The notes under the pieces were generated by a model that did no database searches, was not told the DNA's origin, and saw only the letters and a list, made by a program, of their open reading frames with translations. From an uncultured Chloroflexia bacterium (GTDB lineage: Bacteria; Chloroflexota; Limnocylindria; Limnocylindrales; CSP1-4), in NCBI GenBank assembly GCA_963764515.1, contig CAVXSS010000002.1:480052-544051 (forward strand): 64,000 nucleotides of DNA, read 5' to 3'. Below, piece by piece: positions 46,826-64,000 of the stretch. The first letter of the stretch is position 1, and each line of letters opens with the position of its first letter. The position numbers and the translations under genes are program-made.

Positions 46826-46910
46826 GTGGCTTCCTTTCCGTCGGTGCTTCGCCAGGTCGTCGAAGGACGCCTGATAGACTTCGCGCCGCGGGCGGGAGTA
46901 GCTCAGTTGG
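46826..46910. repeat. Left copy of an ~85-bp imperfect direct repeat (43-bp perfect core cgcctgatagacttcgcgccgcgggcgggagtagctcagttgg at 46868-46910)
   Basis: The sequence matches 58579-58666, with 5 mismatches in the 20 nt before the core and gapped similarity further upstream (shared gtcggtgg). The shared stretch also produces the spurious common peptide QLSYSRPRREVYQA in two track ORFs. Confidence 0.7.
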
Positions 46911-46964
46911 CCGTCCCGAGCCGGAAACCGTCTTGTGCACGCACCGCCGAATGGCTCGACGTCG

Positions 46965-49900
46965 TCAGTCGAGCGAGGACGTGATCCCAAGCGTCGCTGT
47001 CTTGTGCTGTGACGGCCGCCCACCTGAGTTTCTGACGAACATCTTGATCGAGACGTTGTTGGCTTTGGCGACGCTATCGATCTCGGGCAAGGCGACGGCA
47101 TCGCTTGCATACGCGCTGGCCGCGTTGCAGGAGAGCGGCGACCCGGGACTGCCGTGGGTGGCGAGCAGCGTGGCGCCGTCGTACACCTCGAAGTAATAAC
47201 AAGTCGTGTCGCCAACCGTTGCCGAGCGATACGTGTGGCGGAAGGTCGCGCCGGTGACGACGGAGCCCGCCGGAACGTATGCGGGGAACGTCAGCTTCAG
47301 GTATCGACTGCTATCGAACGATGTCGACCAGCTGGACGTCGAGGTGTATGCGCCATCGCTGACGATGATGACGAACGACTGTACGGCGCTCGTGTCGACC
47401 CCGCCGTTCGCGGTGCCGCCGTCGTCGTGGATCCGGACGCTGACCGTGGCGATACCCGCAGCGCCGGCCGCAGGGGCGTAGGCAAGCGTGCCGGTCGCGC
47501 CGACCGCAGGCTGCGAGCTGAACAGCGGGTTGTTGTCGTTGGTGACGAGGAAGTCGACGACCTGGCCTGCCTCGTCCACCGGACCCGTCGTGATGGCCGT
47601 CGCCCAGCCGCCGACGCTCTGCGCAGCGGCCTCCTGGCGGACGGTCTGGTCGGCGCCCTTGGTGAAGCTCGGCACGTCGTTGACGGCCGTGACGGTGATG
47701 GTCGCGGTCACCGTGTTCGAGTCGAAGGTGCCGTCGTTGGCCTTGTATGTGAAGGTGACGGCTCCGTTCGCGTTGGCGACCGGGGCGTAGCTGAAGGACC
47801 CGTTGGCATTCAGCACCAGGGCGCCCGTGGCGACGTTCGAGACGAGGATCGCACTGAGCGGGTCAGTGTCGGGGTCGGTGTCGTTGAATAGCACGCCGTT
47901 GTAGGGCGTCCCGGTGATCGGCACAACTAGCGTCGTATCTTCCCTGGTCGTGTAGCTGTCCGCGACGGCCGTCGGGGCGCTGGCGATGAGAACCGCGCCG
48001 GATACCGTCGGGGTGCTGCTGTTGCCGACGTTGTCGATGACGACGAGCTGCCAGCGGTAGCAGTTGCCGTTGACCAGGCCGATATGGTTCCGTGGGCTGC
48101 TGCCGGTGTCCGGCGCGCCGTCATTCGCGTAGGACACGCTGGCGCATGTCCCGGGAGTGACCACGCCTCCCTTCTGCCGCTGGAGCGATCGCGAGGCCAC
48201 GCCGGACCCGGTCTCGGTCTCAGACCAGGTGACAGTGACGCTGGTCGCGGACTGGGTGGTCAGGCCCGCGACGGGGATCGAAAAGGTCATCGACGGCGCA
48301 ATGGCGTCCGCGGTGAGGGTGACGGTCCGGGTAGCGCCCGCGGTCAGCACGTTGTTGTAGGGCGTCACGGTGATGTTGGTCGTGGCCGAGGAGGCGGTCC
48401 AGGTGGCGTTCCTGGCCGCCGGGTTGCCGGCGACATCGCCGGAAGCGTAGGTCCATCCCGTTCCAGCGGAGAGCGCACCGTAGTTGTGCTTGTTGATGCC
48501 CGAGGCCGGGTCCGTCGAGCTCGAGGAGAGACTGATGGTGCCCGTGGCGCCGCCCTTGAACCAGATCGCGCTGTTGGGACTCGACTGGTAGACGTTGGTG
48601 CCGGAGCCGGTCACGTTCGGCTGGCTGGGCGCGGTGGTGTCGATCAGTACGGCACCGGACGTGGATCCGGCCGCGTTGCCCGCGAAGTCGGCGAGCGTCT
48701 GGACCCAGCGATAGCAGGTGCCGGTGACGAGCGGACTCTGGGCGACCGAGGAGACGGCCGTGCTGGGAGCGCCGTCGGTGCTCCATGCGGTGGCGGCACA
48801 GGATCCCGGAGAGGACTGGCTGCCCTTCCAACGCTGGAGCGAGCGGCCGCCAGTTGTGGCGACACCGATCCCGCTGCCGTCGCTCTCGGTCCAGGCGATC
48901 GTGTAGCTCGTGGCCGCCTGGAGGGTCGTGGTGCCCTCGTTAGGAGTGGTGAAGTCCGCTGTCGGGGCGGTCGTGTCGAAGGAGACGTTGTCGAAGGTGG
49001 AGGTGTTGAGGGTGCCTGCGACATGCGAGGTGACGACGAGGCCCACGTTGATGGTGCTGCCCATGGTGATGGTCTGCGTCGCGCCCACCGCGGTCCACGT
49101 CACACCATCTGGCGAGCGCTCGGCAAGGAATGTGCTGCCGATCCTGGTCATGCGCACCCAATAGGGCGCGCTGATGCCGCCCAAAACGGTTCCCGTGGCT
49201 GAGGCACCAGTCGTCGCTCGGTAGATCGACTCGGCTCCGGCGGTTCCTTCGATGTCGGCCAACGCCATGGCACTGGTTGCGCCGGTCGTGTCACGGAACA
49301 TGACCCCGCCCTTGGCGGACACCGCCGTGTTCTGGACCGCGAGGACCTTAGCCGTCAGCTGGCCATCGCCGGTCATCGTGCGGTACACGAATTGGAATGC
49401 GTCCGTGGTGCCCCAGATGTCCGCGCCGCCACCTTTCACCGTGTACGTGCCACCGGAGAAGGTCGTGGATCCGACGATGCCGGTGGTGCCGACGTCCCCG
49501 TTGGTCGTGAAGATCCCGAGGGCGTAGACAGTGATGGCGATGGAGTCGGTGTCGGTCAGGTTACCGCCGGAGCCCGTGTTGCCGAGGTCCTTGGTGACGA
49601 CCTGGAGCGTGGCGGCGCCGCTGAAGGTCGAGGTCGGGATAAAGCTGGTCCCGGCCAGGGCAGCATTGATGTTGCCGATCGTCCCGCGGAAGGTCATCGT
49701 CGCGTCGGCGGTGCCGTCTCCGGCGCCCGTGCCGTTGGCGTCGCTGAAGGCGAAGCTCAGGCCGCCGGTGCCCGACAGGCTGACGGTGCCGTTGGTGCCG
49801 GTGAGCTGCACCTGGACCGTCGCTGCAGCGGCGTCGCTGTCGCTGATCGAGATGGGGTTGCCGTTGGCGCTGGAGAAGACCAGGGTCACGCCCTTCGAGG

Positions 49901-52900
49901 TGTCGGCCACCGCGGGCAGGCTGTTGAGCGGCGCGTCGTTCACGGCGTTGACGCTGATCGTGACCGTGACCACGTTGGAGTCGCGGAGGCCGTCATTGGC
50001 CTTGTAACTGAACGAGTCGGTGCCGTTGAAATCCCTGCCGGGCAGGTACGTGAACGAACCGTCGGCGCTGAAGTTGAGGTAGCCGTTGGCCACATCGGAA
50101 ACGAGCAGTGCCGTCAACGGGTCGGACTCCGGGTCCGTGTCGTTGGCGAGCACGCCAGTGCCGACGGCCACAGTCAGCAGCGCGTCTTCGTTGACCGAGT
50201 AGCCGTTGGCGACGGCCGTCGGGGCGACATCGGCGACGACCGTGATCGCGACGTTGTCCGTGTCGCTCAGCGATCCACCGGGGCCGGTGTTGCCCTGGTC
50301 GTTGGTAACGATCTGGAGATTGGCCGAGCCGACATAACCGGCCGTCGGGGTGTAGGTCATGCCCGCCAGCGCGGCGTTGATGTTGGCGAGCGTGCCGGTG
50401 AAGGTCATGGTGCTGTCGGCAGAGCCGGTCCCAACAGTGAACGCCAGCCCGGTCGTGCCGGAAAGGGTCAGGGTTCCGTTCGTGACGGTTAGCTGCTCCT
50501 GCACGCTTGCTGCCCCAGCGTCCACGTCGGAGACGGAGACAAGATTGCCGTTGGCCGTGGAGAAGACGAGGGAGTTATGCGTAGCCTGCGCACCCGGCAC
50601 GCCATTGATGGGAGCGTCGTTGACGGCCGTCACGGTGATGCCGCGCGTGGCGGTGTTGCTGTTCGATGAGCCGTCGTTGGCGACGAACGTGACGGTCCGG
50701 GCGAGCGTGCTGGGTGCATCGCTGGTGTTGGTGTAGGTGATCGACCGGAGGGCCGTCTGGTAGAAGGCCTTGGTCGCACCGCCGGTCAGGGCGAGGACAC
50801 CCGTACCGGCGGTCCAGGTGCCGGTGATGCCGTTCTGGTCGACGAAAGCGAGGGAGTCCTGGGGGTTGGCGTAATTGGTCGTCATCGTGATCGTCGCGGA
50901 GACGAGATTGGCCGAGTCGGCGTCGGTGACGGTGATGCCCGGGTCGAGCAGCACCGCGCCACCGTTCTCCGTGTAGGCCAGTGCGGCGACGGTGGTGGTG
51001 ACCACGGGTGCGGCAGTCGCGGGGTCGGCAATCGTCCAATCTGCGGCGGCAAAGACCGTGATCCCTGTCTGCTGAATCCAGTTGGCCGTCGCATCGCGGG
51101 TGGTGCTCGCCTTGGTGGGGTCCTGCTCGGCCCAGGTACCAGCCAGCTTCCAGAGGCCGACGACGCTCTCCGTGTTGCCGTTGAGCTCCGCGTCCAGGTA
51201 GTGGAGGCGGACCGTGGCCGTGAGCGCGCCGCCGCCGGTCGGCGTGAAGGTGTAGGTCCGGGTGACGGCCCCGGTCTTGGCGGCCGGTGCGGCCTTGACC
51301 AACTTGACCTTGAAGGCGGTCGGCGCGGTGCCGGAGTTGATGGTGATCTGGTTGTGCGGGTTGCCGAAGCAACGCATCGTCCCGGTGCCGATCGTCGTGC
51401 GGCTGACTCCGCCGGTGGCCGACAGGATCGAGGTCACGTCCGTCGTTCCGCTGCACGTCGCCGCAGAGCCGAGCGTCAAGACGTTGGCATTGCCGGCACC
51501 GGAGCCCGTCGAGAGGTCGCCGCTGTCGAGCGACAGCACGCCGTTGACCGTGGCATTTCCGGCCAGCGTCGCGCCGCTCCCGTTGTTCATCCTGAGGTGG
51601 CCATAGGTCACCGCGCTGACGGTTTGAGCCGCGCTCCCGGCGTACTCCACGGTCAGGTTGGTCAGTGTGGTGTTCGTGATCGTGTACTGGTTGCTGAAGC
51701 CGGCGGTGGCCGCCGTCCGCGTGACCTTGACCGTGCCGCTGCCGGTCAGCGTCCCCGAGCCGCTCATCACCGATGCGGCGGCAGGCGTGAACGTGCCACT
51801 GGCGCCGACGGTGAACGTTCCGTTGGCGGCGAAGTTGCCGGTGGCGGAAACGGCCGCTGAGGTGGCGATGGTGAGGCCCTGGAACGTGAGCGTCCCGGCG
51901 TTCGAGATCGATGAACCGTTGTTCATCGTGACGGTGCCGGCGGTTGCTGCCAGGACGGCCGAGGCGTTGACCGTCAGGGCGGTGGCCACGCCGAAGGTCG
52001 CGTTCGAGCTCACGTTGCTGCCGCTGATGACGAGGTTGCCGTAGACCTGGCTGCTGGCGAGCGCCGCCACGGCGGTCGTGGTGCCCGCATACTCGATCGT
52101 GCTGGTCGCGGCGACCGAATGCGTCGCGTAGCCCGCCGGGAACGTCCGCGTGCCGCCGATCTTGAGCGTCGCACCCGCGGCCACGGTGAGCGTTCCGGCG
52201 GGCACCGTTCCTGCAGCCAGCGCGGCCACTTCGACGCCGGTCAGACCGCGGTTGTAGATGCGGAAGTCGTCGACGCGTCCGTCGAAGTACGTATCGGCGG
52301 CGTACTGGGATCGGCCGATCCAGTTGTTGGCCGTGTTGCCCAGGCTCGACGGACCGAGCGTCATGCCGGTGTTCTGGCCCACCTGCGAGCCGTTCACGTA
52401 GAGCGTGCCCGTGTTGCCCGACTTGGTCACCGCCACGTGGACCCATTGGGCGATCGGCAACGCAGCTGTGCCATTGATGACCTGCTCGGTCCCGGCGCCG
52501 CCGGTGGTGATGGCAAAGCGGACGACGTTCGTGCTGCCGTTCTGCGCCGTCAGGAACATGTACGCGGTCGTGCCCGTGCCGTAATCGAAGATCCGCCGCC
52601 AAAGGCCAGTCGTGTCGCGCCGCACCCAGGTCGCGAAGGTGAAGTTGCTGAGCGTGCTGACGATGCCGGTCGGCATGGTGACGTGTTGGTTCGAGCCGTC
52701 GAGGTTGACGGCTTGTCCGATCTGACCGGTGGTGAACGTCGGGGTATTGACCAGCGTGCCATCGAGCCCGGCGCCGCCGCTGTCGGTAGCGTCGTTCTCG
52801 AACTCGTACCACGCGAAGAGTCCGGCCGCGCCGTTGTCGGCTTTGAACGTGCTGAGATCGAAGGTGCCGCCATCGATCCTCAGGTCGCCGATGACGCTCA

Positions 52901-53141
52901 CATCGGCGCCCAGTGTCAGCGTGCCGCTGGACTTGTTGACGACGAGGTCGTTGACCACCGCGGGAAGGCCGTTTCCGGTCGCCTGGGTGCCCGACCCGTT
53001 GTACGTATAGTTCGCGCCCGTCGAGTACGTGCGCGCGCCGGTGACCTGGACGTTCCCGCTCGCGCCGGAGCTGGTGATGCCGTTCGTAGACGTGATGCCG
53101 AGCGTCGCGCCGCTCGACAGGGTGAACGACCCGCGCCCCGG
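46965..53141 (-). CDS. C-terminal ~2058-aa segment (frame C) of a giant secreted subtilase-adhesin
   Basis: This is the ORF 46965..52958 extended upstream in-frame to the TGA at 53142-53144. It contains two LamG/concanavalin-like jelly rolls, repeated Ig-like modules, VNDAP Big_9/cadherin-like repeats and a distinct C-terminal domain. The LamG units read ...WVHVAVTKSGNTGTLYVNGSQ...FDGRVDDFRIYNRGLTGVEV... and ...WVRMTRIGSTFLAERSPDGVTW.... The Ig-like modules read ...GTCYRWVQTLADFAGN... and ...GNCYRWQLVVIDNVGN.... The repeats read ...TDPESDPLTALLV...TVTAVNDAP.... Confidence 0.75.
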   Translation of the reverse strand, partial: PGRGSFTLSSGATLGITSTNGITSSGASGNVQVTGARTYSTGANYTYNGSGTQATGNGLPAVVNDLVVNKSSGTLTLGADVSVIGDLRIDGGTFDLSTFKADNGAAGLFAWYEFENDATDSGGAGLDGTLVNTPTFTTGQIGQAVNLDGSNQHVTMPTGIVSTLSNFTFATWVRRDTTGLWRRIFDYGTGTTAYMFLTAQNGSTNVVRFAITTGGAGTEQVINGTAALPIAQWVHVAVTKSGNTGTLYVNGSQVGQNTGMTLGPSSLGNTANNWIGRSQYAADTYFDGRVDDFRIYNRGLTGVEVAALAAGTVPAGTLTVAAGATLKIGGTRTFPAGYATHSVAATSTIEYAGTTTAVAALASSQVYGNLVISGSNVSSNATFGVATALTVNASAVLAATAGTVTMNNGSSISNAGTLTFQGLTIATSAAVSATGNFAANGTFTVGASGTFTPAAASVMSGSGTLTGSGTVKVTRTAATAGFSNQYTITNTTLTNLTVEYAGSAAQTVSAVTYGHLRMNNGSGATLAGNATVNGVLSLDSGDLSTGSGAGNANVLTLGSAATCSGTTDVTSILSATGGVSRTTIGTGTMRCFGNPHNQITINSGTAPTAFKVKLVKAAPAAKTGAVTRTYTFTPTGGGALTATVRLHYLDAELNGNTESVVGLWKLAGTWAEQDPTKASTTRDATANWIQQTGITVFAAADWTIADPATAAPVVTTTVAALAYTENGGAVLLDPGITVTDADSANLVSATITMTTNYANPQDSLAFVDQNGITGTWTAGTGVLALTGGATKAFYQTALRSITYTNTSDAPSTLARTVTFVANDGSSNSNTATRGITVTAVNDAPINGVPGAQATHNSLVFSTANGNLVSVSDVDAGAASVQEQLTVTNGTLTLSGTTGLAFTVGTGSADSTMTFTGTLANINAALAGMTYTPTAGYVGSANLQIVTNDQGNTGPGGSLSDTDNVAITVVADVAPTAVANGYSVNEDALLTVAVGTGVLANDTDPESDPLTALLVSDVANGYLNFSADGSFTYLPGRDFNGTDSFSYKANDGLRDSNVVTVTISVNAVNDAPLNSLPAVADTSKGVTLVFSSANGNPISISDSDAAAATVQVQLTGTNGTVSLSGTGGLSFAFSDANGTGAGDGTADATMTFRGTIGNINAALAGTSFIPTSTFSGAATLQVVTKDLGNTGSGGNLTDTDSIAITVYALGIFTTNGDVGTTGIVGSTTFSGGTYTVKGGGADIWGTTDAFQFVYRTMTGDGQLTAKVLAVQNTAVSAKGGVMFRDTTGATSAMALADIEGTAGAESIYRATTGASATGTVLGGISAPYWVRMTRIGSTFLAERSPDGVTWTAVGATQTITMGSTINVGLVVTSHVAGTLNTSTFDNVSFDTTAPTADFTTPNEGTTTLQAATSYTIAWTESDGSGIGVATTGGRSLQRWKGSQSSPGSCAATAWSTDGAPSTAVSSVAQSPLVTGTCYRWVQTLADFAGNAAGSTSGAVLIDTTAPSQPNVTGSGTNVYQSSPNSAIWFKGGATGTISLSSSSTDPASGINKHNYGALSAGTGWTYASGDVAGNPAARNATWTASSATTNITVTPYNNVLTAGATRTVTLTADAIAPSMTFSIPVAGLTTQSATSVTVTWSETETGSGVASRSLQRQKGGVVTPGTCASVSYANDGAPDTGSSPRNHIGLVNGNCYRWQLVVIDNVGNSSTPTVSGAVLIASAPTAVADSYTTREDTTLVVPITGTPYNGVLFNDTDPDTDPLSAILVSNVATGALVLNANGSFSYAPVANANGAVTFTYKANDGTFDSNTVTATITVTAVNDVPSFTKGADQTVRQEAAAQSVGGWATAITTGPVDEAGQVVDFLVTNDNNPLFSSQPAVGATGTLAYAPAAGAAGIATVSVRIHDDGGTANGGVDTSAVQSFVIIVSDGAYTSTSSWSTSFDSSRYLKLTFPAYVPAGSVVTGATFRHTYRSATVGDTTCYYFEVYDGATLLATHGSPGSPLSCNAASAYASDAVALPEIDSVAKANNVSIKMFVRNSGGRPSQHKTATLGITSSLD

Positions 53142-53251
53142 TCAAGGTCGTCGTCGTGCCGGCCATCTGGAGCGTCGCGCCGCTGTCGACGATGAAGGCG
53201 ACGTCGTTCGAGACGGTCCCGCCTGACGCGTACGTCTGCACACCCGACCCG

Positions 53252-55780
53252 TTAAAGGTGACGCTGCTCGTGGTGCTCGTGCCGGTCTCGGTCAGCGTTC
53301 CGCCTGAATGGGTGAAGTCGCCGGCGACGTTGAGCGTCACGCTCGCCGCCGATTCGATCGCTGAAGTCGAACGACCCGCTCGAGAGCGAGAAGTTGCCGC
53401 TGACGGACATCGCACGAACGCCGGTGCCGATCGTCCCGCGCAGCGTGCCACCCGTCTGGGAGTAGTCGCCGCCCACGGCCAGGTCACCCGCGGCGTTGTT
53501 GCCCAGTGCGAGCGCGCCGGTGGTGCCGGTACTGGTGACGGTCATGTTCCCGTTCACCGTCCGGAGGTAGCCGCCGAGGCTGAAGGTCGTGGTCTGGTTC
53601 GGGGTGTTCCAGACGAAATCCCAGAACGACTGATTATAGCCGATGTCCGAGGCGCCGCCGCCTGGCGGCGAGGTGTAGCCGACGATCTCGATGGTCGAAC
53701 CCGCGCTCCATGTGGCGGTCGGGATGACGCCGTCCGCCGTCGTCCACGCGTGCTGGTACCGGCCGCCGCTGTTGACGACGATCGTGGCGCCGGTGTTGAT
53801 GGTCACCGTCCCGGCGCTACGGAACGTGCCGGTCACCGACAGGTCGGTACCCGCCCCCGCGTTCAGCGTCAGCGTGATGCCGCTGTTGAGGTCGAGCTCG
53901 CCGCCCGCATCGACGACGACCTCGTCCGCCGTCACGTTGGCAGCGACGGTCACGATGTGGGCGTTACGGATCGTGATCGTGCTGGCCGCATTGGTCGGCG
54001 CGAGGGTCGCGGTGCTCCACGTGACACAGCCGCCGGCGATCGGAGCGCTCTGCCAGGTGCCTGTCGTGGCCCAGTTGCCGCTGGCACGGGAGCGGAAGCA
54101 GTCGGTCGACGTGGAGGCCGCCACGTAGGGACCCACGAAGGGGCCACCGTCGGCGGCTCCGGTGTTGCCGGCCGGGGTGACCGGCTCCGTGGCGGCGTCC
54201 TGCGCCGCGCGAGCGAGGTCGAGGCGGCCGTTGCCGGTCTGGGCCCGCGTGCCGACGGCTGCCGCCGAGCGCGCCAGGCGGCCCACGATGACGGCGTTGC
54301 TGGCGGTGGTGTCGAGGGCCCAGAGGAGGGCCGCGGCACCGGCCACCTCGGCGGCGGCGGCGCTGGTGCCCGAGACGCTGGTGTACTCGTCGTCGGTGAG
54401 CGGGTCCGCGTCGGCGTTCGCGGCGGTGGTCAGGATGTCAACGCCGGGTGCCGCCAGGAAGGTCTGCGGTCCGTGGTTGCTGTCGGCCGCGAGGAGGTCC
54501 GCCTCGTCGGTGGAGGCAACGCCCATCACACCGCGATCGCCGGCGGGGTACGTCGGCGTTGTGACGCCGTCGTTGCCCGTCGCCGCGACGATGACCGCCC
54601 CGCCGTCCCAGGCGTAGTCGATCGCCGCCTGGAGCGCGGCCGAGTAGCCGGGGGCGGAGAACGCGAGGAGGATGACGTCCGCGCCATTGTCCGACGCGTA
54701 GAGGATGCCGCGGATGATGTCGCTGTCCTGGCCCGTTCCGTCCGCGGCGAGAACCGCGACCGGCATGACCCTGACGCCTGCCGAGCCGATGCCGGCGATG
54801 CCCTCGCCATTGTCGGTCGCCGCGGCCACGATGCCGGCCATCCACGTCCCGTGGCCGTTCGGGTCGGTCAGCGGGTCCGTGCCGACAAAGGATGCGCCTG
54901 GGATGGTCCGGCCGAGGAGATCCGGATGCGAGGCGTCGACTCCGGTATCGAGAACCGCGACCAGGGCCTCGCCGTCGGTCGGAACGCGGACCGATGGCCA
55001 GCCGATCCTTGGCAGCGACCACTGGTCCGCGTAGCGAGGGTCAGCCCCGACCGCCTCGACGGCGCGGGCGCGATCGAGCTCCACGTGCACCACGCCCGCG
55101 CGCGCGCGCAAGGCGGCCGCGCCGGCAGTAGCAGCTGCCGCCGGCAGCTCCACGACGGCGAGGCCGAGCGCGGGAACCGTCGAGACGATCATGGCGCCGC
55201 CTGTCGCCAGCGCGGCCGCCTGTTGTTGAGCCGACGTCCATCGATTGAAGGTCACGATGTAGCTCACGGGATTGGTCGTGACCGACGATGGCTCTGGCGG
55301 CGAGGATGCGCCCAGCGGAGAAGGCGCCTGCGTGAGGGGTGCGCCAGGAGCCGGGCCCGGTTCCGGCACGCCGCTCCCTTCGGGCAATGGCATCGGGCTC
55401 GGTTCCGGCGTGATGCTCGCTTCAGGCGGCGACTCTGGGTCAGGGGACGGCTCATCGGGAACGGCCGATGGGTCGACCTCCGGGGGTTCGGTCGGCGTGG
55501 GCTCGGCGGTCGGCGAGGGCTCGGCGGTCGGCGAGGGTTCGGCGGTCGGCGAAGGTTCGGCGGTCGGCGAAGACGACGGATTCGGGGCGACGGATGCGGC
55601 CATGTCGGACGGAACCGGGGTCGCAGGGTGGGCCGCGGTCACGGAGGCCGGCATCAGCACCGTCGCCACGTAGAGAGCGGCCAGCATGCCGGCTCGGATC
55701 CCGGCGGCGCGTGCAGCGCTGGACCGGAACCATCGGGTCCGGATCGACCGCTTCCGGATCATGGGATGTCGAGCCCCCAT
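53252..55780 (-). CDS. N-terminal segment (frame A) of the giant protein: Sec signal peptide, Pro/Ser/Glu-rich linker, S8 subtilisin-like protease domain, then beta-helix-like T/G/S-rich repeats
   Basis: The S8 catalytic triad is VAVLDTGVD (Asp), NGHGTWMAG (His) and SGTSAAAAEVAG (Ser). The last ~35 codons of this ORF (DRIGGERDAQRRRRL...) are post-frameshift noise. Confidence 0.8.
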   Translation of the reverse strand: MGARHPMIRKRSIRTRWFRSSAARAAGIRAGMLAALYVATVLMPASVTAAHPATPVPSDMAASVAPNPSSSPTAEPSPTAEPSPTAEPSPTAEPTPTEPPEVDPSAVPDEPSPDPESPPEASITPEPSPMPLPEGSGVPEPGPAPGAPLTQAPSPLGASSPPEPSSVTTNPVSYIVTFNRWTSAQQQAAALATGGAMIVSTVPALGLAVVELPAAAATAGAAALRARAGVVHVELDRARAVEAVGADPRYADQWSLPRIGWPSVRVPTDGEALVAVLDTGVDASHPDLLGRTIPGASFVGTDPLTDPNGHGTWMAGIVAAATDNGEGIAGIGSAGVRVMPVAVLAADGTGQDSDIIRGILYASDNGADVILLAFSAPGYSAALQAAIDYAWDGGAVIVAATGNDGVTTPTYPAGDRGVMGVASTDEADLLAADSNHGPQTFLAAPGVDILTTAANADADPLTDDEYTSVSGTSAAAAEVAGAAALLWALDTTASNAVIVGRLARSAAAVGTRAQTGNGRLDLARAAQDAATEPVTPAGNTGAADGGPFVGPYVAASTSTDCFRSRASGNWATTGTWQSAPIAGGCVTWSTATLAPTNAASTITIRNAHIVTVAANVTADEVVVDAGGELDLNSGITLTLNAGAGTDLSVTGTFRSAGTVTINTGATIVVNSGGRYQHAWTTADGVIPTATWSAGSTIEIVGYTSPPGGGASDIGYNQSFWDFVWNTPNQTTTFSLGGYLRTVNGNMTVTSTGTTGALALGNNAAGDLAVGGDYSQTGGTLRGTIGTGVRAMSVSGNFSLSSGSFDFSDRIGGERDAQRRRRLHPFRRNADRDRHEHHEQRHL

Positions 55781-56514
55781 GGGATGATCTCCGTTGTGGT
55801 GTCCGCGGCGTCGCGGAACATCACCGGATAGAGGGTGAAACCCTGGTAGGCGGTCGATCCGACGACGGTCGCCTGGTCGATGACCATCGCGGCGTTGCCG
55901 GACTCCTTGCCGAAGATGCGGACGCGCAGGTCGTTCGCGATCGAGGTCGTCGCCGCTGCCGGGATCGACGTCGAGAACGTCGTCGGGGTCGTTCCGGTGA
56001 CGCAGCCGACCGGGCTACCTGGACTGCCGTGCGTCCCGAGGACCGCGCCGGTCGAGATCCTCCGAACCTCGAAGTAGTAACACGCCTGGCCCGCCCCGCT
56101 GCTGGCAAGCCTGAGGTCGAACGTTGCGGCAGAGACGGCCACACCCGAGGCCAACGAATCGTTGAGGTCGAACTCGAGGTACCGGCCGGCCGCGAAGGTG
56201 CTCGACCAGGTCGACGTGGTCACGGTCAGGCCATCGCCCGAATAAGCGAACGAGTTGGAGCGGTCGACCTCGACGCCGGATGATGAATCGCCGACCTCGA
56301 ACGCGGGGGTGACGCGTTCGCCCGGGAACAACGCCTTTGACCCGAACAGGGCCACCCCCTCCGTTTGAGCCGTGAAGATGGCGAGGCTCAGTCCAACCAT
56401 GGCGAAAGCGATGGAGACAAGCGCGCCCACGGCCGCAAACACGATGACGGCACGGAAGCGGCGCCTCGGGGTGGCGATGCCGATCGCGTCTCGCCCTCCC
56501 GCTCGGGCGGTCAT
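55759..56514 (-). CDS. Exported TasA/camelysin-like small protein whose C-terminal ~135 aa is homologous to the C-terminal domain of the giant subtilase-adhesin
   Basis: The N-terminal TM/signal region is followed by LAIFTAQTEGVALFGS, resembling the TasA-type mature N-terminus. The C-terminal region ...GQACYYFEVRRISTGAVLGTHGSPGSPVGC... parallels ...TTCYYFEVYDGATLLATHGSPGSPLSC... at the giant protein C-terminus. It overlaps its neighbours by 4 and 22 bp. Confidence 0.6.
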   Translation of the reverse strand: MTARAGGRDAIGIATPRRRFRAVIVFAAVGALVSIAFAMVGLSLAIFTAQTEGVALFGSKALFPGERVTPAFEVGDSSSGVEVDRSNSFAYSGDGLTVTTSTWSSTFAAGRYLEFDLNDSLASGVAVSAATFDLRLASSGAGQACYYFEVRRISTGAVLGTHGSPGSPVGCVTGTTPTTFSTSIPAAATTSIANDLRVRIFGKESGNAAMVIDQATVVGSTAYQGFTLYPVMFRDAADTTTEIIPWGLDIP

Positions 56515-57062
56515 GGGACCCCTGCCTGCCGGGTAGCGCCGAATGACAGCGTCACGGTTGTAGTCGAGCCCTGGAGCCCGTTATCAGAATCCCACGGCAG
56601 GTCTGCCCGGAAGCACAGGATCTCGGCGGTTGCAGCGGGCAGCGGCCGGCCGTCGACTTCGTTGCCGAACGCCGCGTCATCGAGCGGGCCATCGAACAGG
56701 GTCATGCCGTCGAAGTCCGCGCAGGATGAGCCGATCGTCTTGATCGTGAGGAGCAGCGCCGCCGAGAGACGGTGTCCACCGACTGCCACGAGCCCACGGC
56801 GCATCGCGTACGTCACGGGTTCACGACCGGAGTTCGTCACGGTTATCGAGGCCGCGACCGAGTCTCCGGGAACCAAGTCGCGGGCCGACAGAGTCGCGTC
56901 TCGTGCGTCGGCACTGAGATCGATCGACGAGATCTCGAATCGGTCGGGGGCAGCCACGTCGGCGCGCGGCGGGCTGGATGTGACCGTCTTCCAGGTGAGC
57001 CACGCGCATGCGATCGATAGCACGACGATCAAGGTCACCGCAAGCCGCCGGCTTCGGGTCAT
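56511..57062 (-). CDS. Exported/membrane-anchored small protein (possible SipW-cognate substrate)
   Basis: The 183-aa product has an N-terminal TM segment (LAVTLIVVLSIACAWLTW) and is beta-rich and acidic. It sits between sipW and the TasA-like gene above, with 4-bp overlaps on both sides. Confidence 0.5.
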   Translation of the reverse strand: MTRSRRLAVTLIVVLSIACAWLTWKTVTSSPPRADVAAPDRFEISSIDLSADARDATLSARDLVPGDSVAASITVTNSGREPVTYAMRRGLVAVGGHRLSAALLLTIKTIGSSCADFDGMTLFDGPLDDAAFGNEVDGRPLPAATAEILCFRADLPWDSDNGLQGSTTTVTLSFGATRQAGVP

Positions 57063-57607
57063 GGCGCGATCGGCTCTCGGGCATCAGCCGGGATCGTGCG
57101 GGCGCGCGGCTCGAGCATTTCGAGGAGCACATGGAAGAGGAGGAGTGCGCCGAGGAGGCACAGCGCGGCGAGCACGCCGGGACCCTTTGACAGGAAGTCC
57201 TGGGCGTAGCCGGCGTACGGCACGTACCGGTCCGCGGCCCCGACGATCGCCCGACCGGGAACGAGGCTGGCGTCTGGATCCTGGTTGGCGTCGCCCTTCG
57301 TTTCGAAAAAGCGGCCTTCCGGCAGATCGACCACGCGACTCACGCGGTGGGTCACGACGACCTCGTTGTCGGCGCGGATCGTGATGACGTCGCCGACGCC
57401 GACCGTCATGACGTCGGTCGGGGTGACGACGACCAGGGAGCCGATCGGGATCGCGGGCTCCATCGAGCCGCCGACGACGACGAACAGCTGGTGGCCGGTG
57501 AGCGGTGCGAAACGGGTGAACAGAGCGAAGCTGATGAGGAGGACGAAAAGCGATATCCCGATGAGACCGACGGCCCGACGCGCGAGACGGGACGAGCTCA
57601 GGATCAT
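57059..57607 (-). CDS. sipW: Signal peptidase I, archaeal/SipW-type
   Basis: The product has an N-terminal TM segment, then the VVVGGSMEPAIPIGSLVVV catalytic-Ser motif (GSMEP) typical of SipW-type SPases, then ...GDANQDPD.... It also has a C-terminal TM (VLAALCLLGALLLF). Confidence 0.8.
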   Translation of the reverse strand: MILSSSRLARRAVGLIGISLFVLLISFALFTRFAPLTGHQLFVVVGGSMEPAIPIGSLVVVTPTDVMTVGVGDVITIRADNEVVVTHRVSRVVDLPEGRFFETKGDANQDPDASLVPGRAIVGAADRYVPYAGYAQDFLSKGPGVLAALCLLGALLLFHVLLEMLEPRARTIPADAREPIAP

Positions 57608-57679
57608 CGAGATCGCGCTCCATTCATGCGAGAGCGGTCCGACCGTCGGTCGGACCGCTCGGTGCTGCCGGGCGACGGC

Positions 57680-58255
57680 CTAGTTGTTCTGGGTTTGCTC
57701 GGCGTTGAAGGTGAAGGTCGTGACCGCAGTCGCGCCCTGGAACGTTTCGTCGGTGGCAAGCGGGAGGGAGACCCGGATGCAGAGCACGTCGGTCGCGGCG
57801 GCAGCCACGGTCCGATCGCCGGTTCCGTCAGTCGGTGAAACGCTGCCGAACATGACGTTCGAGGCGCCGAGCACTTCCGACGCCTGGAGGACCGTGCCAT
57901 CAAAGTCGTCGCACTTGACGAGCGGAGTGGTGGCGTCCACGGTCCTGACCTCAACGGTCAGGGCTGCGTTGAGCACGCCGCCGTTCGGGCCAGCCACGCT
58001 CGTCGACGTGGTGTTCAGCGAGTAGCGGAGCTCATTGGTCCCGACGTTCTCGACGTCGACTGAGCCGGTGTTGGAGTCACCAGGCATCATGTTGGCATTC
58101 GTGAGCGAGAGGGCGTCGATCTTCGTCGCGTCGAGGATGATCGTCCCCGCAGTGAACGTCCCGTCGACGGTCTCGGTGTCCGTGAACACGGCTAGGGACG
58201 TCGCCCCGACACCGATGCTCGCGACTGTGAGGGCGGCCCCGAGAGTGAGAAGCAT
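57680..58255 (-). CDS. TasA/camelysin-family (peptidase M73-like) exported protein with SipW-cognate-type signal peptide
   Basis: The ORF 57680..58813 was trimmed to the ATG at 58255. The 191-aa product reads MLLTLGAALTVASIGVGATSLAVFTDTETVDGTFTAGTIILDA..., matching the TasA-family signal peptide plus AxF(T/N)D mature N-terminus, and is beta-rich. It is the first gene of the sipW operon. Confidence 0.75.
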   Translation of the reverse strand: MLLTLGAALTVASIGVGATSLAVFTDTETVDGTFTAGTIILDATKIDALSLTNANMMPGDSNTGSVDVENVGTNELRYSLNTTSTSVAGPNGGVLNAALTVEVRTVDATTPLVKCDDFDGTVLQASEVLGASNVMFGSVSPTDGTGDRTVAAAATDVLCIRVSLPLATDETFQGATAVTTFTFNAEQTQNN

Positions 58256-58578
58256 GCGTCTGCGCTTGGTGTCCAAGGTGGTTCTCGTTTCTCTACATGC
58301 GTTGCGGTGGGTCGCCGAGCGATCGCCATGTCGCCGGCTTCGCCGGGGTCCTTGGCTCGCGCGGTCGATGCCATTACAGGACACGAAGGTGGTACCCGTA
58401 AGTACCCGAATTCCGCGCGACGTCAAAACTATCGAGTGCCGGCTGGTGCCGCGGCGGTCCATCGAACGTGATGCGCCGTTCAGATGGGCGTTGTCCGCGC
58501 ACGAGGGCCTTCGCGTGTTGCGTGGATGCCTACAGGATCGGGCACCGCTCGAAGCGCCCGATGTAGTACTGATGGCTG

Positions 58579-58666
58579 TCGGTGGTCGAGTGGTTGGTGT
58601 CTCGTTCGCCAGATCACCGAAGAGCGCCTGATAGACTTCGCGCCGCGGGCGGGAGTAGCTCAGTTG
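58579..58666. repeat. Right copy of the ~85-bp imperfect direct repeat (perfect core 58624-58666)
   Basis: See the left copy at 46826-46910. The two copies lie ~11.75 kb apart and bracket exactly the tasA-sipW-giant-adhesin operon. Confidence 0.7.
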
Positions 58667-58695
58667 GCAGAGCGGCAGCCTTCCAAGTCTCCCGC
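58644..58695 (+). other. tRNA-like minihelix: acceptor-stem-like 7 bp (GCGGGAG/CTCCCGC) enclosing a canonical D-arm (TA-GCTC-AGTTGGCA-GAGC) and 15 further nt; no anticodon or T arm could be folded
   Basis: The element starts inside the right repeat core. The left repeat copy keeps GCGGGAGTAGCTCAGTTGG but loses D-stem closure. This suggests a tRNA-gene remnant or tRNA-like attachment-site relic rather than a functional tRNA. Confidence 0.3.
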
Positions 58696-58917
58696 TGTCG
58701 AGCGTTGTGCTCTGATCACAGGATCCCCGCACAAATCGGCCGATTGGGGCCCAGTTTGACGCTCGGGTGCGACAGCGTATAAGTCGGCCACAGCGGATAA
58801 CTTCCTGGGACAATTGAGCGCTGTCTCGGGCCCCTGGATCGATGCCTGACGAAGGGATCGCGCGGTCCTCTTCAATGCCCGGGCCAATGGGCCTCTGGGG
58901 GCGGGACGGGAACCCCG

Positions 58918-60054
58918 CTAGTTGACGGGCTGTGATGCGAGCGTCGTGAGGTCGATGGTCTCGTCGCCAGCCACGACCGCGGCATCATATCTGCGCTGGA
59001 GGTTCGTCACGAGTCGAACCACCGTGTTGCCGCAGACTCCGGTCGACAGGTAGACCCGCAGCCACTCCGGAGTTATGTCCATGCGGAATTGCTGTCCGAC
59101 GTGAAGGTCAACGACTTCCGCCTCTGCGAACTGGTCGTTCACCAAGCGGGGGACGGCCCAAAGCCGGAACGGATCGCGACACGAGAAGAGGCCTGTCAGG
59201 AATTGACCCATATCATCGATCCGGCGACCGAAGCTGATCTGCAGGACGTGCCCCTCGAAGCCAAAGCCGCTTTGCTCAGAGCCCTCCCAGCCAATCGAGA
59301 AGTGCCGCTCGATGTGCCGTACCGCCTGGGCGTATGCCTGAACGGCGCCGGCCATGAAGCCCAAGTGGAGTTCGAAGGCGGCGCCACGGGCGGCGAAGCG
59401 CCCTTGATAGTGGGCTGCTTCGTCGACCACTCCGAGATCCGGATCGCGCATCCGAAGGGCCACTCCGCTTAAGGCTGTCGACAGGCGATACCGGTCGTCA
59501 CCGATGAGCTGATCGAGCAACTCATCCGCCGAATCGCCCTCAAGCTGCACCCGAAGACGCCGCGCGCGAACTCCCTCCAAGGGCAAGAGTTCGTCGCCCC
59601 GGAACTCCGACTTGAACCATCGCGGCTCACCGGCACCCTGCAACCCACGAAGGAACTGCCAGGGGAACCAGCACCAGTCAATGCCCCGTGACGACCAGAC
59701 TGCTCGTCGCAGCTGACCCTGCACGATTCCCGCGGGAGCCGCTGTATGAATCAACCAAAATCGTGGATCAAGGACGTCAACGAAGAGCCCAACGGAGTCA
59801 TCCCACAGAAGAGCCAAAGCTGGATCGTCGGTCCGAGACATCGAGAGGCCAAGTCTTCTCCCGAGGGCTGCGACAGCATCAAGAGGGTTAGGCTCTTCGT
59901 GCCCGGAGTTCACCTCTAGGGCATAGCTCTTGACCTCGCCTGCACGCAGCTCAAACGGAAGGCGATCGGGTTCTCGGCGCTGACCCGACATTGCTGCTGT
60001 CAGAAGACCAGCGATACCCTCGCGGTCGATCGGCACGGATGGGACAGCCGTCAC
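58918..60054 (-). CDS. Hypothetical 378-aa protein, no family recognisable by eye; lower-GC gene
   Basis: The ORF is intact and has GC of roughly 58-60% against ~70% in the flanking DNA. It begins 3 nt after the stop of the upstream gene, so it is operonic. It contains an RHIERH (Rx4H) stretch and a Trp-rich segment WCWFPWQF, but no confident motif. Confidence 0.55.
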   Translation of the reverse strand: MTAVPSVPIDREGIAGLLTAAMSGQRREPDRLPFELRAGEVKSYALEVNSGHEEPNPLDAVAALGRRLGLSMSRTDDPALALLWDDSVGLFVDVLDPRFWLIHTAAPAGIVQGQLRRAVWSSRGIDWCWFPWQFLRGLQGAGEPRWFKSEFRGDELLPLEGVRARRLRVQLEGDSADELLDQLIGDDRYRLSTALSGVALRMRDPDLGVVDEAAHYQGRFAARGAAFELHLGFMAGAVQAYAQAVRHIERHFSIGWEGSEQSGFGFEGHVLQISFGRRIDDMGQFLTGLFSCRDPFRLWAVPRLVNDQFAEAEVVDLHVGQQFRMDITPEWLRVYLSTGVCGNTVVRLVTNLQRRYDAAVVAGDETIDLTTLASQPVN

Positions 60055-60057
60055 GTC

Positions 60058-60984
60058 TTAGCCCTCCCCGCGCTCGATCTCTTGCCCGAGATCTTCAAAC
60101 GACATCTGCCCAGCAGGGACCCTGGCCGCCCTCGGTCTTCCTCTCAAGGTGCGCTCGGCTTTGCGCCGCATGCTCTGCCATCCCTGAGTCTCGCCTCTCG
60201 GATCGAAGGCAGCAGGTGACCGGAGGATACGGAGGACGCTGCCTTGGATGTCGGCGCCGCCAGGTTCAACCGACAAGTACTCGGTGAGCTCGCCCTCCGA
60301 CATTCGCCGGACGATGGTCGTCGCCCGGTCGCGCATTCTTGATCGGGCCCGCTGACCGTAAACGCTTGAGTAGGGAATGGCGGCGGCCAGCAGGCTGTCG
60401 AAGGTGATGACCGTTTCTCCTCGCGCGGCGGCGGCGACTATAGCAGGAAGGAGAACCTCCCTGAGCTCCTCATCTGGGCTGTCAGCGTCCACTGGGATCA
60501 ACCGTGGTGGGGGACCGGCCGGGACGTTCACTTCGAACGGCGTCAGCACACTGCTACCCCTCGTCTCCAGCTTCACGCTCGAAGAGCCAATCACCAAGAG
60601 AGGAGCCTGAAAGCCAATAGCGCGAAGGCCGGTCACAACTCGCTCTTGCGACTCCTCGAGACAGGCATAGAGGGGCTGCACAATCGCTCCGGTGGGAGGA
60701 AACGGAAGGGTTACGTTTCGAGCGACGTTGTCCGCGGTCATGACCTCGTATCGTTGGGCTTGATCAGCCTCGACGTTGTTGCCGCTCTTGCACTCCGTCG
60801 GCAGAAGGATCTGTCGATCAGCGTTGAGTCCGAGCCCGTCGACAACCACGGACGTGCGTGAGGTGGAGATGGGAATCTCGAACCGCTGGATGCGGAAGCC
60901 TTGGTCACGAAGGGGAGCGGGCCAACCACCTTCGCCTGTCAGTAGGGCGATCCAGGCGTTGAGCGGGATCAGACGTGGTTCCAC
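60058..60984 (-). CDS. Hypothetical 308-aa protein with N-terminal PD-(D/E)xK nuclease-like motif (VVVDG...ILLPTECK); lower-GC gene
   Basis: It has a GTG start. The beta-strand-D then ExK arrangement, ~13 residues apart, mirrors the HsdR nuclease motif seen in this window (DVILFVNGLPLVLIELK). The C-terminal ~150 aa are unassigned. Confidence 0.5.
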   Translation of the reverse strand: MEPRLIPLNAWIALLTGEGGWPAPLRDQGFRIQRFEIPISTSRTSVVVDGLGLNADRQILLPTECKSGNNVEADQAQRYEVMTADNVARNVTLPFPPTGAIVQPLYACLEESQERVVTGLRAIGFQAPLLVIGSSSVKLETRGSSVLTPFEVNVPAGPPPRLIPVDADSPDEELREVLLPAIVAAAARGETVITFDSLLAAAIPYSSVYGQRARSRMRDRATTIVRRMSEGELTEYLSVEPGGADIQGSVLRILRSPAAFDPRGETQGWQSMRRKAERTLRGRPRAARVPAGQMSFEDLGQEIERGEG

Positions 60985-61075
60985 TCGTTGGGTCGCCTAA
61001 CGCCCAACGAGGGTAGTTGCGGACCGGCTTTCTAGAACATATGTGCTAATCATACTCCCGACCGTTCCTTCCGCA

Positions 61076-63990: not shown

Positions 63991-64000
63991 GCCGTCGACG

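Follow-up and report, generated by a model that had tools for sequence, protein, structure and literature searches.

A 64,000-nt stretch of a contig from an uncultured Chloroflexia bacterium (here called the window) carries an operon for a TasA-like fibre subunit, a SipW-like signal peptidase and a giant adhesin, enclosed by two imperfect direct repeats. The repeats are probably attachment-site scars in a tandem array of integrative islands lying on the 5' side of a tRNA-Gly(TCC) gene, and the cassette between them is best read as the middle member of this decayed array. The operon would sit in a genomic island that is old and no longer mobile; such islands are ordinary, but the layout of this one is unusual.

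Each repeat joins the 5' end of the tRNA gene to a remnant of an integrase gene. The tRNA was delimited by alignment to a sister contig of 1.78 Mb from an ENA metagenome (loci L001 and L003; loci on other contigs are cited by L numbers throughout), which was found via exact-protein look-ups and is 99.6-99.7% identical to the window over 35596-58687. The features concerned are:

46848-46911, plus strand: left direct repeat (44-nt perfect core 46868-46911), read as the attL-type scar of the cassette
58605-58668, plus strand: right direct repeat of 64 nt, the tRNA-proximal cassette end
46892-46911, plus strand: displaced 5' fragment of tRNA-Gly(TCC), nt 1-20, followed by unrelated DNA (alignment to the sister tRNA)
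58649-58687, plus strand: tRNA-Gly(TCC) nt 1-39, ending ...CCTTCCAAG; intact in the sister, a displaced 5' fragment here (alignment to the sister)
46829-46897, minus strand: integrase N-terminal remnant L, ...SRPRREVYQASFDDLAKHRRKGS (profile match; tblastn to the L157/L162 family)
58545-58651, minus strand: integrase N-terminal remnant R in two frames, ...SRPRREVYQALFGDLANE, a frameshift, then TNHSTTDSHQYYIGRFERCPIL and a stop (profile match; identity to L157)

The two repeat copies agree at 59 of 64 positions (92%), start 11,757 nt apart and share a gap-free perfect core of 44 nt (46868-46911 = 58625-58668). In the right copy, 44 nt of 5' flank lead into nt 1-20 of the tRNA, and the left copy is a partial copy ending at nt 20. 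Leftward of the perfect 44 nt, identity falls to 15/20 and then persists at the protein level only, while rightward it is lost abruptly. This combination of block and gradient fits attL and attR sites derived from two related elements. The first-pass annotation of this DNA had described repeats of about 85 bp with a 43-bp core; both copies lie where it placed them, but the repeat measures 64 nt and its core 44; the extension to ~85 nt is weak in DNA (only GTCGGTGG). This extension is the diverged continuation of two integrase N-termini that are homologous at the protein level. Concern that the repeats might be a common dispersed motif was not borne out within the 64-kb window, where only two copies occur, dinucleotide shuffles of the same sequence gave 0 matches and a sensitive nhmmer scan found no third, degenerate copy.

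At the position of the right copy, the sister contig, which holds both repeats, has a complete tRNA-Gly(TCC) gene identified by ARAGORN. The window matches this gene through ...CCTTCCAAG (tRNA nt 39, in the anticodon loop) and then diverges totally. Because the match stops there, neither ARAGORN nor Rfam at gathering thresholds calls a tRNA in the window, the Rfam tRNA model reaching a sub-threshold 22.6 bits over 58649-58731 against a gathering score of 29. The left fragment has no tRNA or Rfam match. A right copy running into a tRNA-like hairpin, with only the 5' part retained on the left, had been described earlier; the arrangement holds, with nt 1-20 kept in the left copy, but the structure belongs to a genuine tRNA-Gly(TCC) and is not merely tRNA-like. 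Beyond the tRNA, the sister continues with GH3, LuxR-type regulator and Ser/Thr kinase genes, and on many related metagenome contigs the Ser/Thr kinase is the conserved downstream neighbour of tRNA-Gly(TCC). Since the sister tRNA continues into this conserved kinase neighbourhood, the sister represents the empty site for the DNA found to the right of the tRNA fragment in the window, which is a strain-specific restriction-modification island.

The integrase remnants were traced through related loci. The region upstream of the window tRNA aligns to locus L157 with 77% DNA identity over 100 nt and encodes, on the minus strand, ...REVYQSFVDDLARRHQASTTARYRYNIGRFERWL, the N-terminal SAM-like domain of a tyrosine recombinase. 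The L157 N-terminus in turn matches the full-length proteins of L162 (367 aa) and L186 (363 aa) at E 2.4e-9, and both open reading frames belong to the PF00589 integrases (E 6e-25 and 9e-28) and are divergently oriented immediately upstream of tRNA-Gly. Thus, a chain of homology leads from the window via L157 to full-length PF00589 integrases. A profile built from six N-termini of related loci was searched against 1290 six-frame pieces of the window, and its top three matches coincided exactly with the repeats: the left copy at E 5e-5, then the right copy in its two frames at E 4.4e-4 and 0.015. Remnant R amounts to ~35-40 codons at the tRNA-proximal end, and remnant L may continue past a frameshift. 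The earlier statement that no integrase is visible remains valid for intact integrase and excisionase genes in the window, but it overlooked the N-terminal vestiges in both repeats. Two further candidates were discarded, namely an integrase catalytic-domain pseudogene, for which a whole-window search was negative, and a split integrase starting in the left arm, where no in-frame ATG, GTG or TTG occurs between the stop codon of the giant gene and the repeat.

The family to which these remnants belong is small, with 28 homologues at E ≤ 1e-20, and only 23-29% identical to phage or Xer integrases. On long contigs, the integrase gene always adjoins the 5' end of tRNA-Gly(TCC) in divergent orientation, with cargo beyond it: L217 and L218 have type I restriction-modification genes there, L186 and L219-L221 a UvrD-like helicase and a DUF4238 protein. 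In the intact members L162, L186, L215, L217 and L219 the integrase starts ~120 nt before the tRNA.

Locus L215 combines such elements at one tRNA. Starting from an intact tRNA, it contains first a 315-aa integrase from another family and the Replic_Relax cargo of that integrase, next a 40-nt tRNA fragment, and finally an integrase of the window family with cargo of its own. The displaced 40-nt segment is identical to the 5' end of the tRNA (nt 1-39 plus one flanking base), and L215 is a live-looking tandem array with the same architecture as the window. The arm that follows its fragment, TCACCCGCTCGCGAGCGCTGTGCTCTGAAC, is ~78% identical over its first 36 nt to window positions 58688-58725 (TCTCCCGCTGTCGAGCGTTGTGCTCTGATC). 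This likeness argues for a biological junction at nt 39 and against an assembly error. It also argues that the restriction-modification island is of the L215 'integrase 1' type and entered the anticodon loop, displacing the right copy; its break at nt 39 coincides with the one in L215. In this strain the right copy is itself a displaced fragment ahead of a second, strain-specific island, and the intact tRNA would be found where the restriction-modification island ends, beyond the window. The start of the incoming arm, TC(T/A)CCCGCT (58688-58696; about 9831-9839 in L215), mimics the 3' acceptor strand of the tRNA, and fragment and arm can pair like a mini-tRNA, which explains the sub-threshold Rfam match. 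A 25-nt internal deletion of the tRNA at the right copy was considered and dropped, as the L215 junction shows that TC(T/A)CCCGCT... is the arm of an incoming element.

The proposed elements would have a terminal tyrosine integrase gene next to the tRNA and would bring along their own copy of the 5' part of the tRNA. On integration the tRNA would be rebuilt, and the resident 5' part, together with its upstream DNA, would end up on the far side of the inserted element. An early event of this kind may have displaced the left copy, in which case everything between the two copies, the operon included, would have arrived as or inside an island. Deletions would then have removed the integrase body and other cargo, leaving a tightly trimmed, immobile operon. 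In this strain the restriction-modification island has in addition entered the anticodon loop, turning the right copy into the nt 1-39 fragment. The cassette is read either as a decayed island or as cargo that entered one, trimmed by deletion to the selected operon and fixed in both known strains.

In the Islander survey (Hudson, Lau & Williams 2015, PMC4383910), DNA bounded by a tRNA gene on one side and the displaced fragment of that gene on the other counts as an island, and it is because DNA so placed is an island by definition that the cassette is read as one. The tRNA gene and a tRNA end fragment in the same orientation (plus strand) flank the interval, the 5' fragment (46892-46911) lies 11.7 kb upstream of the tRNA start at 58649, and the length of 11,757 nt falls within the range of 2-200 kb used in that survey. 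Read from the fragment with its older integrase remnant through cargo and integrase remnant to the tRNA, the order mirrors the classical arrangement and coincides with that of L215. Site-specific integration at a tRNA locus, as proposed by the first-pass annotation, is supported by the L215 parallel and by repeats that both consist of a tRNA 5' end and an integrase remnant; the geometry, however, is rare and not typical as had been stated. Its description of a stranded islet lacking an integrase agrees with the same composition of the repeats and with the full-length family members found upstream of the same tRNA.

Several observations weigh against this interpretation. The tyrosine integrase gene that Islander expects inside the interval is represented by an N-terminal remnant only, and the whole window contains no intact integrase, excisionase, catalytic-domain remnant or PF00589 match. 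The left fragment breaks off within the D loop, at nt 20, whereas documented crossovers lie in the anticodon loop, the T loop or at the T/acceptor junction (PMC4383910). The GC content of the cassette equals that of the left flank, its cargo differs from the defence cargo of intact family members, and its left arm does not resemble the known element arm (p 0.8-0.9). No displaced fragment was located for the intact members L217 and L219; likewise, none was found in L217-L220 or among 120 tRNA loci retrieved by a metagenome scan with tRNA nt 1-43, the 5' flanks of which are mostly unrelated.

An empty site for the cassette is likewise missing, both available strains carrying it. The comparison with related genomes that had been suggested as a check was attempted by a search of 185k species genomes anchored on the AlkZ-like left neighbour, which returned 80 loci with ≤86% identity, none syntenic with either flank; the nearest genomes by this neighbour are metagenome-assembled genomes of Chloroflexota or 'Candidatus Limnocylindrales'. 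The exact 32-nt core of the repeat had 0 matches in JGI metagenomes, and a plasmid search found none that carries the cassette. A circular form and movement in trans, the latter suggested by the first-pass annotation, likewise found no support.

A further difficulty is that both copies carry the same fusion, in which integrase codon ~12 is joined to the tRNA 5' end via a 9-nt linker. Similar fusions occur in other species (L192 and L112). Two independent elements would not be expected to share it, so that either gene conversion or an integrase gene spanning attP has to be invoked. It may be an old fusion with scars homogenised by a short gene-conversion tract, it may mark a sub-family in which the integrase gene spans attP, or the 64 nt may have been copied by an integrase-free mechanism. 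In view of these alternatives, confidence in attachment-site scars is no more than moderate, and an integrase-free duplication has to be taken seriously, even though it is considerably less probable. The operon would then already have been the neighbour of a unit formed by integrase remnant and tRNA, or would have been brought there by homology-facilitated or illegitimate recombination, and the 64-nt piece would have been copied across it as filler during repair or rearrangement, or through a single crossover of the Campbell type involving a circular fragment; the repeats would be a by-product and not att sites. The identical integrase-codon/tRNA fusion inside the 44-nt block does point to one source sequence, and a break at nt 20 corresponds to no known crossover site, just as the lack of an integrase body and of a compositional difference is in keeping with such an origin. 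In addition, the giant gene has recently recombined with another species, so homologous exchange is active at the locus. A recent copy-paste event is nevertheless difficult to reconcile with the arms left of the perfect block, which are anciently diverged in the manner of attL and attR arms, and the succession of fragment, cargo, integrase remnant and tRNA matches the L215 array.

Two other origins of the repeats are less probable still. Since duplication of tRNA genes is common, the left copy could be the relic of a second, paralogous tRNA-Gly(TCC) destroyed after nt 20, with the operon lying between two former tRNA genes, and it keeps the same leader and the same probable -10-like TGATAGACT box as the functional copy. 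This is improbable, given that 0/120 related loci contain two tRNA-Gly(TCC) copies or fragments, that neutral decay of a paralogue would hardly leave a perfect 44-nt block beside diverged arms, and that the integrase remnant on the left copy argues for an att origin. The box belongs to a TGnTAGACT motif located 13 nt ahead of the tRNA start and recurring upstream of tRNA-Gly in several species, which could be the extended -10 box of the tRNA or merely the conserved E-V-Y-Q codons of the integrase on the other strand. Its retention in the left copy, where it points into the 3' end of the giant gene, is what would favour a functional regulatory module, either a promoter and leader for an antisense or small RNA at the adhesin 3' end or a structured RNA. 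Of all the explanations this one has the least in its favour: a canonical sigma-70 consensus scan found no promoter at either copy, RNA folds of the repeat regions are no better than shuffles (z +0.7, -1.05 and +0.56), Rfam gathering thresholds yield no structured RNA in the window and nothing at the left copy even at E up to 10, and the integrase codons account for the motif equally well. Attachment-site scars thus remain the preferred reading of the repeats.

The cargo of the cassette consists of a single minus-strand operon, as had been claimed, encoding a TasA-like protein, a SipW-like peptidase, two further small exported proteins, one of them a TasA paralogue, and a giant S8 protein:

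57680-58276, minus strand: TasA/camelysin-like fibre subunit with SipW-dependent signal peptide (PF12389, TIGR04088 and fold)
57059-57607, minus strand: SipW-like (archaeal-type) signal peptidase I (TIGR02228, 95.8 bits; cut-off 51.85)
56511-57062, minus strand: TasA paralogue, 183 aa, exported (30% identity to the TasA-like protein by BLASTP, E 1.6e-16)
55759-56514, minus strand: 251-aa exported protein with a TasA-type ...SLAIFTAQTE signal region (homology to the giant protein)
46965-55780, minus strand: giant secreted protein with S8 subtilase, beta-helix-like repeats, LamG, Big_9/tandem-95, cadherin-like and C-terminal shared domains (Pfam, NCBIfam)

The TasA-like protein scores 30.1 bits with PF12389 (cut-off 22.5) and 26.1 bits with TIGR04088 (cut-off 19), and its AlphaFold model (pLDDT 76) finds its best PDB fold matches in B. 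subtilis TasA (5OF2 and 5OF1; E 3e-5, TM 0.46). It stays below the TasA equivalog NF046066 (28 bits vs 450), as does the peptidase with respect to the Bacillus SipW equivalog NF046067 (94.7 bits, cut-off 190). No match to the TapA family was found in Pfam and NCBIfam scans of the operon proteins. Residues 75-206 of the 251-aa protein resemble residues 2787-2918 of the giant protein (34% identity, E about 1e-13). This domain of ~130 residues (...CYYFEV...THGSPGSP...; 46965-47360 in the giant C-terminus) is covered by no Pfam or NCBIfam family.

The operon holds an archaeal-type SipW-like peptidase and a TasA/camelysin subunit with a SipW-dependent signal peptide, and the earlier functional assignment to TasA and SipW is backed by both profile models and fold. 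To judge from its sequence, the operon is probably a distant member of the TasA/SipW fibre modules and works like them. By analogy with the TasA and archaeal pilus literature (PMC9674648, PMC10151520, PMC4292775, PMC9245690), the SipW-type peptidase would mature the TasA-like subunits for assembly into extracellular fibres, while the shared C-terminal domain may dock the giant adhesin and the 251-aa protein to the same partner.

Two frameshifts, near 53133 and at 53351-53359, disrupt the giant gene in the window, whereas the sister contig has one intact open reading frame of 2936 aa. The frameshifts fall inside a cluster of 29 differences from the sister contig, in which the GH3 gene also looks frameshifted at its 3' end. 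The frameshifts of the giant gene, of hsdR in the right-hand island and of the sister GH3 may be long-read assembly errors rather than signs of pseudogenes. The giant protein has, close to its N-terminus, a Pro/Thr/Ala/Glu/Ser linker of PTAEPS repeats, for which four to five 18-nt units in tandem (55489-55578) are responsible.

Homologous operons in other species, with TasA proteins 74-88% identical, occupy at least three other genomic contexts, and those of L084-L088 are flanked by neither direct repeats nor tRNA genes, with tRNA fragments and integrase remnants absent as well. Conservation between species extends from 46964 to about 58378-58415, just within the scars, and like the other contexts this adds support to the island reading. 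The 388 nt at the end of the giant gene, encoding its C-terminus, have 83.5% identity in L085 and L086 and form the portion conserved across species, in contrast to the differing interior. In L085 (13860-18160) and L086 (13900-18140), from two other species, near-perfect internal repeats of 300-1400 nt take the place of the middle of the gene, where the gene calls are fragmented. Compared with L084, from another species, the giant gene is a mosaic: 48015-55267 aligns to L084 12873-20118 with up to 99.8% identity in 400-nt bins, and identity is no more than 67-81% for the genes from tasA to that of the 251-aa protein. Such a contrast is suggestive of recent recombination between species within the adhesin gene.

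These observations allow a broader proposal, which is tentative and rather unlikely to hold in full. Limnocylindria-like Chloroflexota would harbour integrative elements specialised for the 5' half of tRNA-Gly(TCC), the E-V-Y-Q codons of their integrase (TGnTAGACT on the other strand) doubling as the promoter of the rebuilt tRNA, so that selection keeps the remnant after the integrase has died. One such element would have moved a whole TasA-fibre/adhesin operon between species, its adhesin still being exchanged in segments up to 99.8% identical.

The surroundings of the cassette also differ from those in relatives, in which the tRNA lies within 0.2-7 kb of DEAD helicase, ACT-domain and Ser/Thr kinase genes. 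In the window, the DEAD helicase and ACT orthologues are found at 16.7-20.0 kb, and the tRNA is ~39 kb away. Neither the operon nor AlkZ stands beside the tRNA in any of the 120 loci retrieved with its 5' part, and both observations speak for the island reading of the cassette. Some 27 kb of metabolic genes (20034-46707) lie between helicase and left scar, namely GH9, GH10, SDR, MFS, panB, aldehyde dehydrogenase, FIST, DHDPS, FGGY kinase, LacI, sugar ABC transporter, amylase, APH, LarA, FAA hydrolase and AlkZ; this block may stem from older islands or from rearrangement. In L101, L137, L152 and L156 the 5' parts of tRNA-Gly(TCC) break at ~nt 43-48 and are followed by a shared arm, AGGTCAT(G/C)CCGGG...GCGTAGAGCT, which looks like that of a third element family displacing 5' fragments of this tRNA.

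To the right of the cassette, the strain-specific island has a lower GC content (0.62-0.66) and comprises:

58688-64000, no strand assigned: strain-specific island, absent from the sister contig and running off the window; end arm 58688-58725 (TCTCCCGCTGTCGAGCGTTGTGCTCTGATC)
58918-60054, minus strand: PF25924 'MJECL33' protein, 378 aa (Pfam)
60058-60984, minus strand: 308-aa partner of the MJECL33 protein (recurring gene pair)
61076-63990, minus strand: type I restriction hsdR in three frame-shifted pieces (protein family)

The MJECL33 pair recurs in the Limnocylindrales contigs L089-L094, among HsdM, IS3 transposase and integrase genes and by tRNA genes. It may be an uncharacterised defence pair; PADLOC gave no match for it.

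The locus shows how a surface-fibre/adhesin operon can end up in a tRNA-linked island in an abundant uncultured soil lineage. It presents a tRNA gene as an integration hotspot on the rarely used 5' side for at least two integrase families, and is a worked example of a dead island recognised from an integrase vestige of ~40 codons inside a flanking repeat. For annotation, the 'tRNA-like' element is to be treated as a scar with an intact tRNA expected beyond the window, and the frameshifted giant gene is not to be over-interpreted. tRNA-integrated islands and their tandem arrays are already known, and the configuration with a 5' fragment is known but rare; what distinguishes this case is the rare 5'-side configuration, the integrase vestige inside the repeat and the fibre/adhesin cargo in an uncultured member of the Chloroflexota.

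Among known islands, the closest counterparts are those with a 5' fragment, which make up 159/3919 entries of the Islander collection, where tandem arrays are recorded as well (PMC4383910). As in those islands, a fragment in the same orientation lies upstream of the tRNA and the integrase, here a remnant, is at the tRNA-proximal end; as in the arrays, one tRNA has received several islands, every one with a fragment of its own, and the most recent entered at the anticodon loop. Unlike Islander islands, the cassette lacks an intact integrase and its older fragment stops at nt 20, while the block of identity reaches 24 nt (perfect) plus 20 nt (imperfect) into a 5' flank that encodes the integrase N-terminus. 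The cargo consists of surface-fibre and adhesin genes instead of phage or defence genes, and the host is an uncultured Limnocylindria-like Chloroflexota. In SSV1 and Mx8 the integrase gene extends across attP (PMC4383910), and in the window, L192 and L112 an integrase frame without a start codon similarly runs into the tRNA-homologous segment. In contrast to SSV1 and Mx8, no intact member with an attP-spanning layout was found, and the fusion may be an old deletion, so that this likeness serves as a lead only.

The operon itself resembles tapA-sipW-tasA of B. subtilis and sipW-tasA-calY of B. cereus, in which an archaeal-type peptidase is encoded beside TasA/camelysin-fold subunits with a SipW-type signal motif (PMC9674648, PMC10151520, PMC4292775). 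Like the Bacillus pair tasA and calY, it encodes two paralogous subunits, with TasA as the best fold match. It differs from the Bacillus operons in that the equivalog models are not reached (TasA 28 vs 450 bits, SipW 95 vs 190), that a TapA homologue is lacking, and that additional 251-aa and 2936-aa S8/LamG/cadherin proteins with a common C-terminal domain are present, the fibres being predicted only. Its host is a bacterium, unlike those of the archaeal bundling pili, to which the likeness is confined to sequence and fold; with these pili and the donor-strand filaments of the TasA superfamily, the operon shares a TasA-like jelly-roll subunit outside Firmicutes together with an archaeal-type peptidase (PMC9245690).

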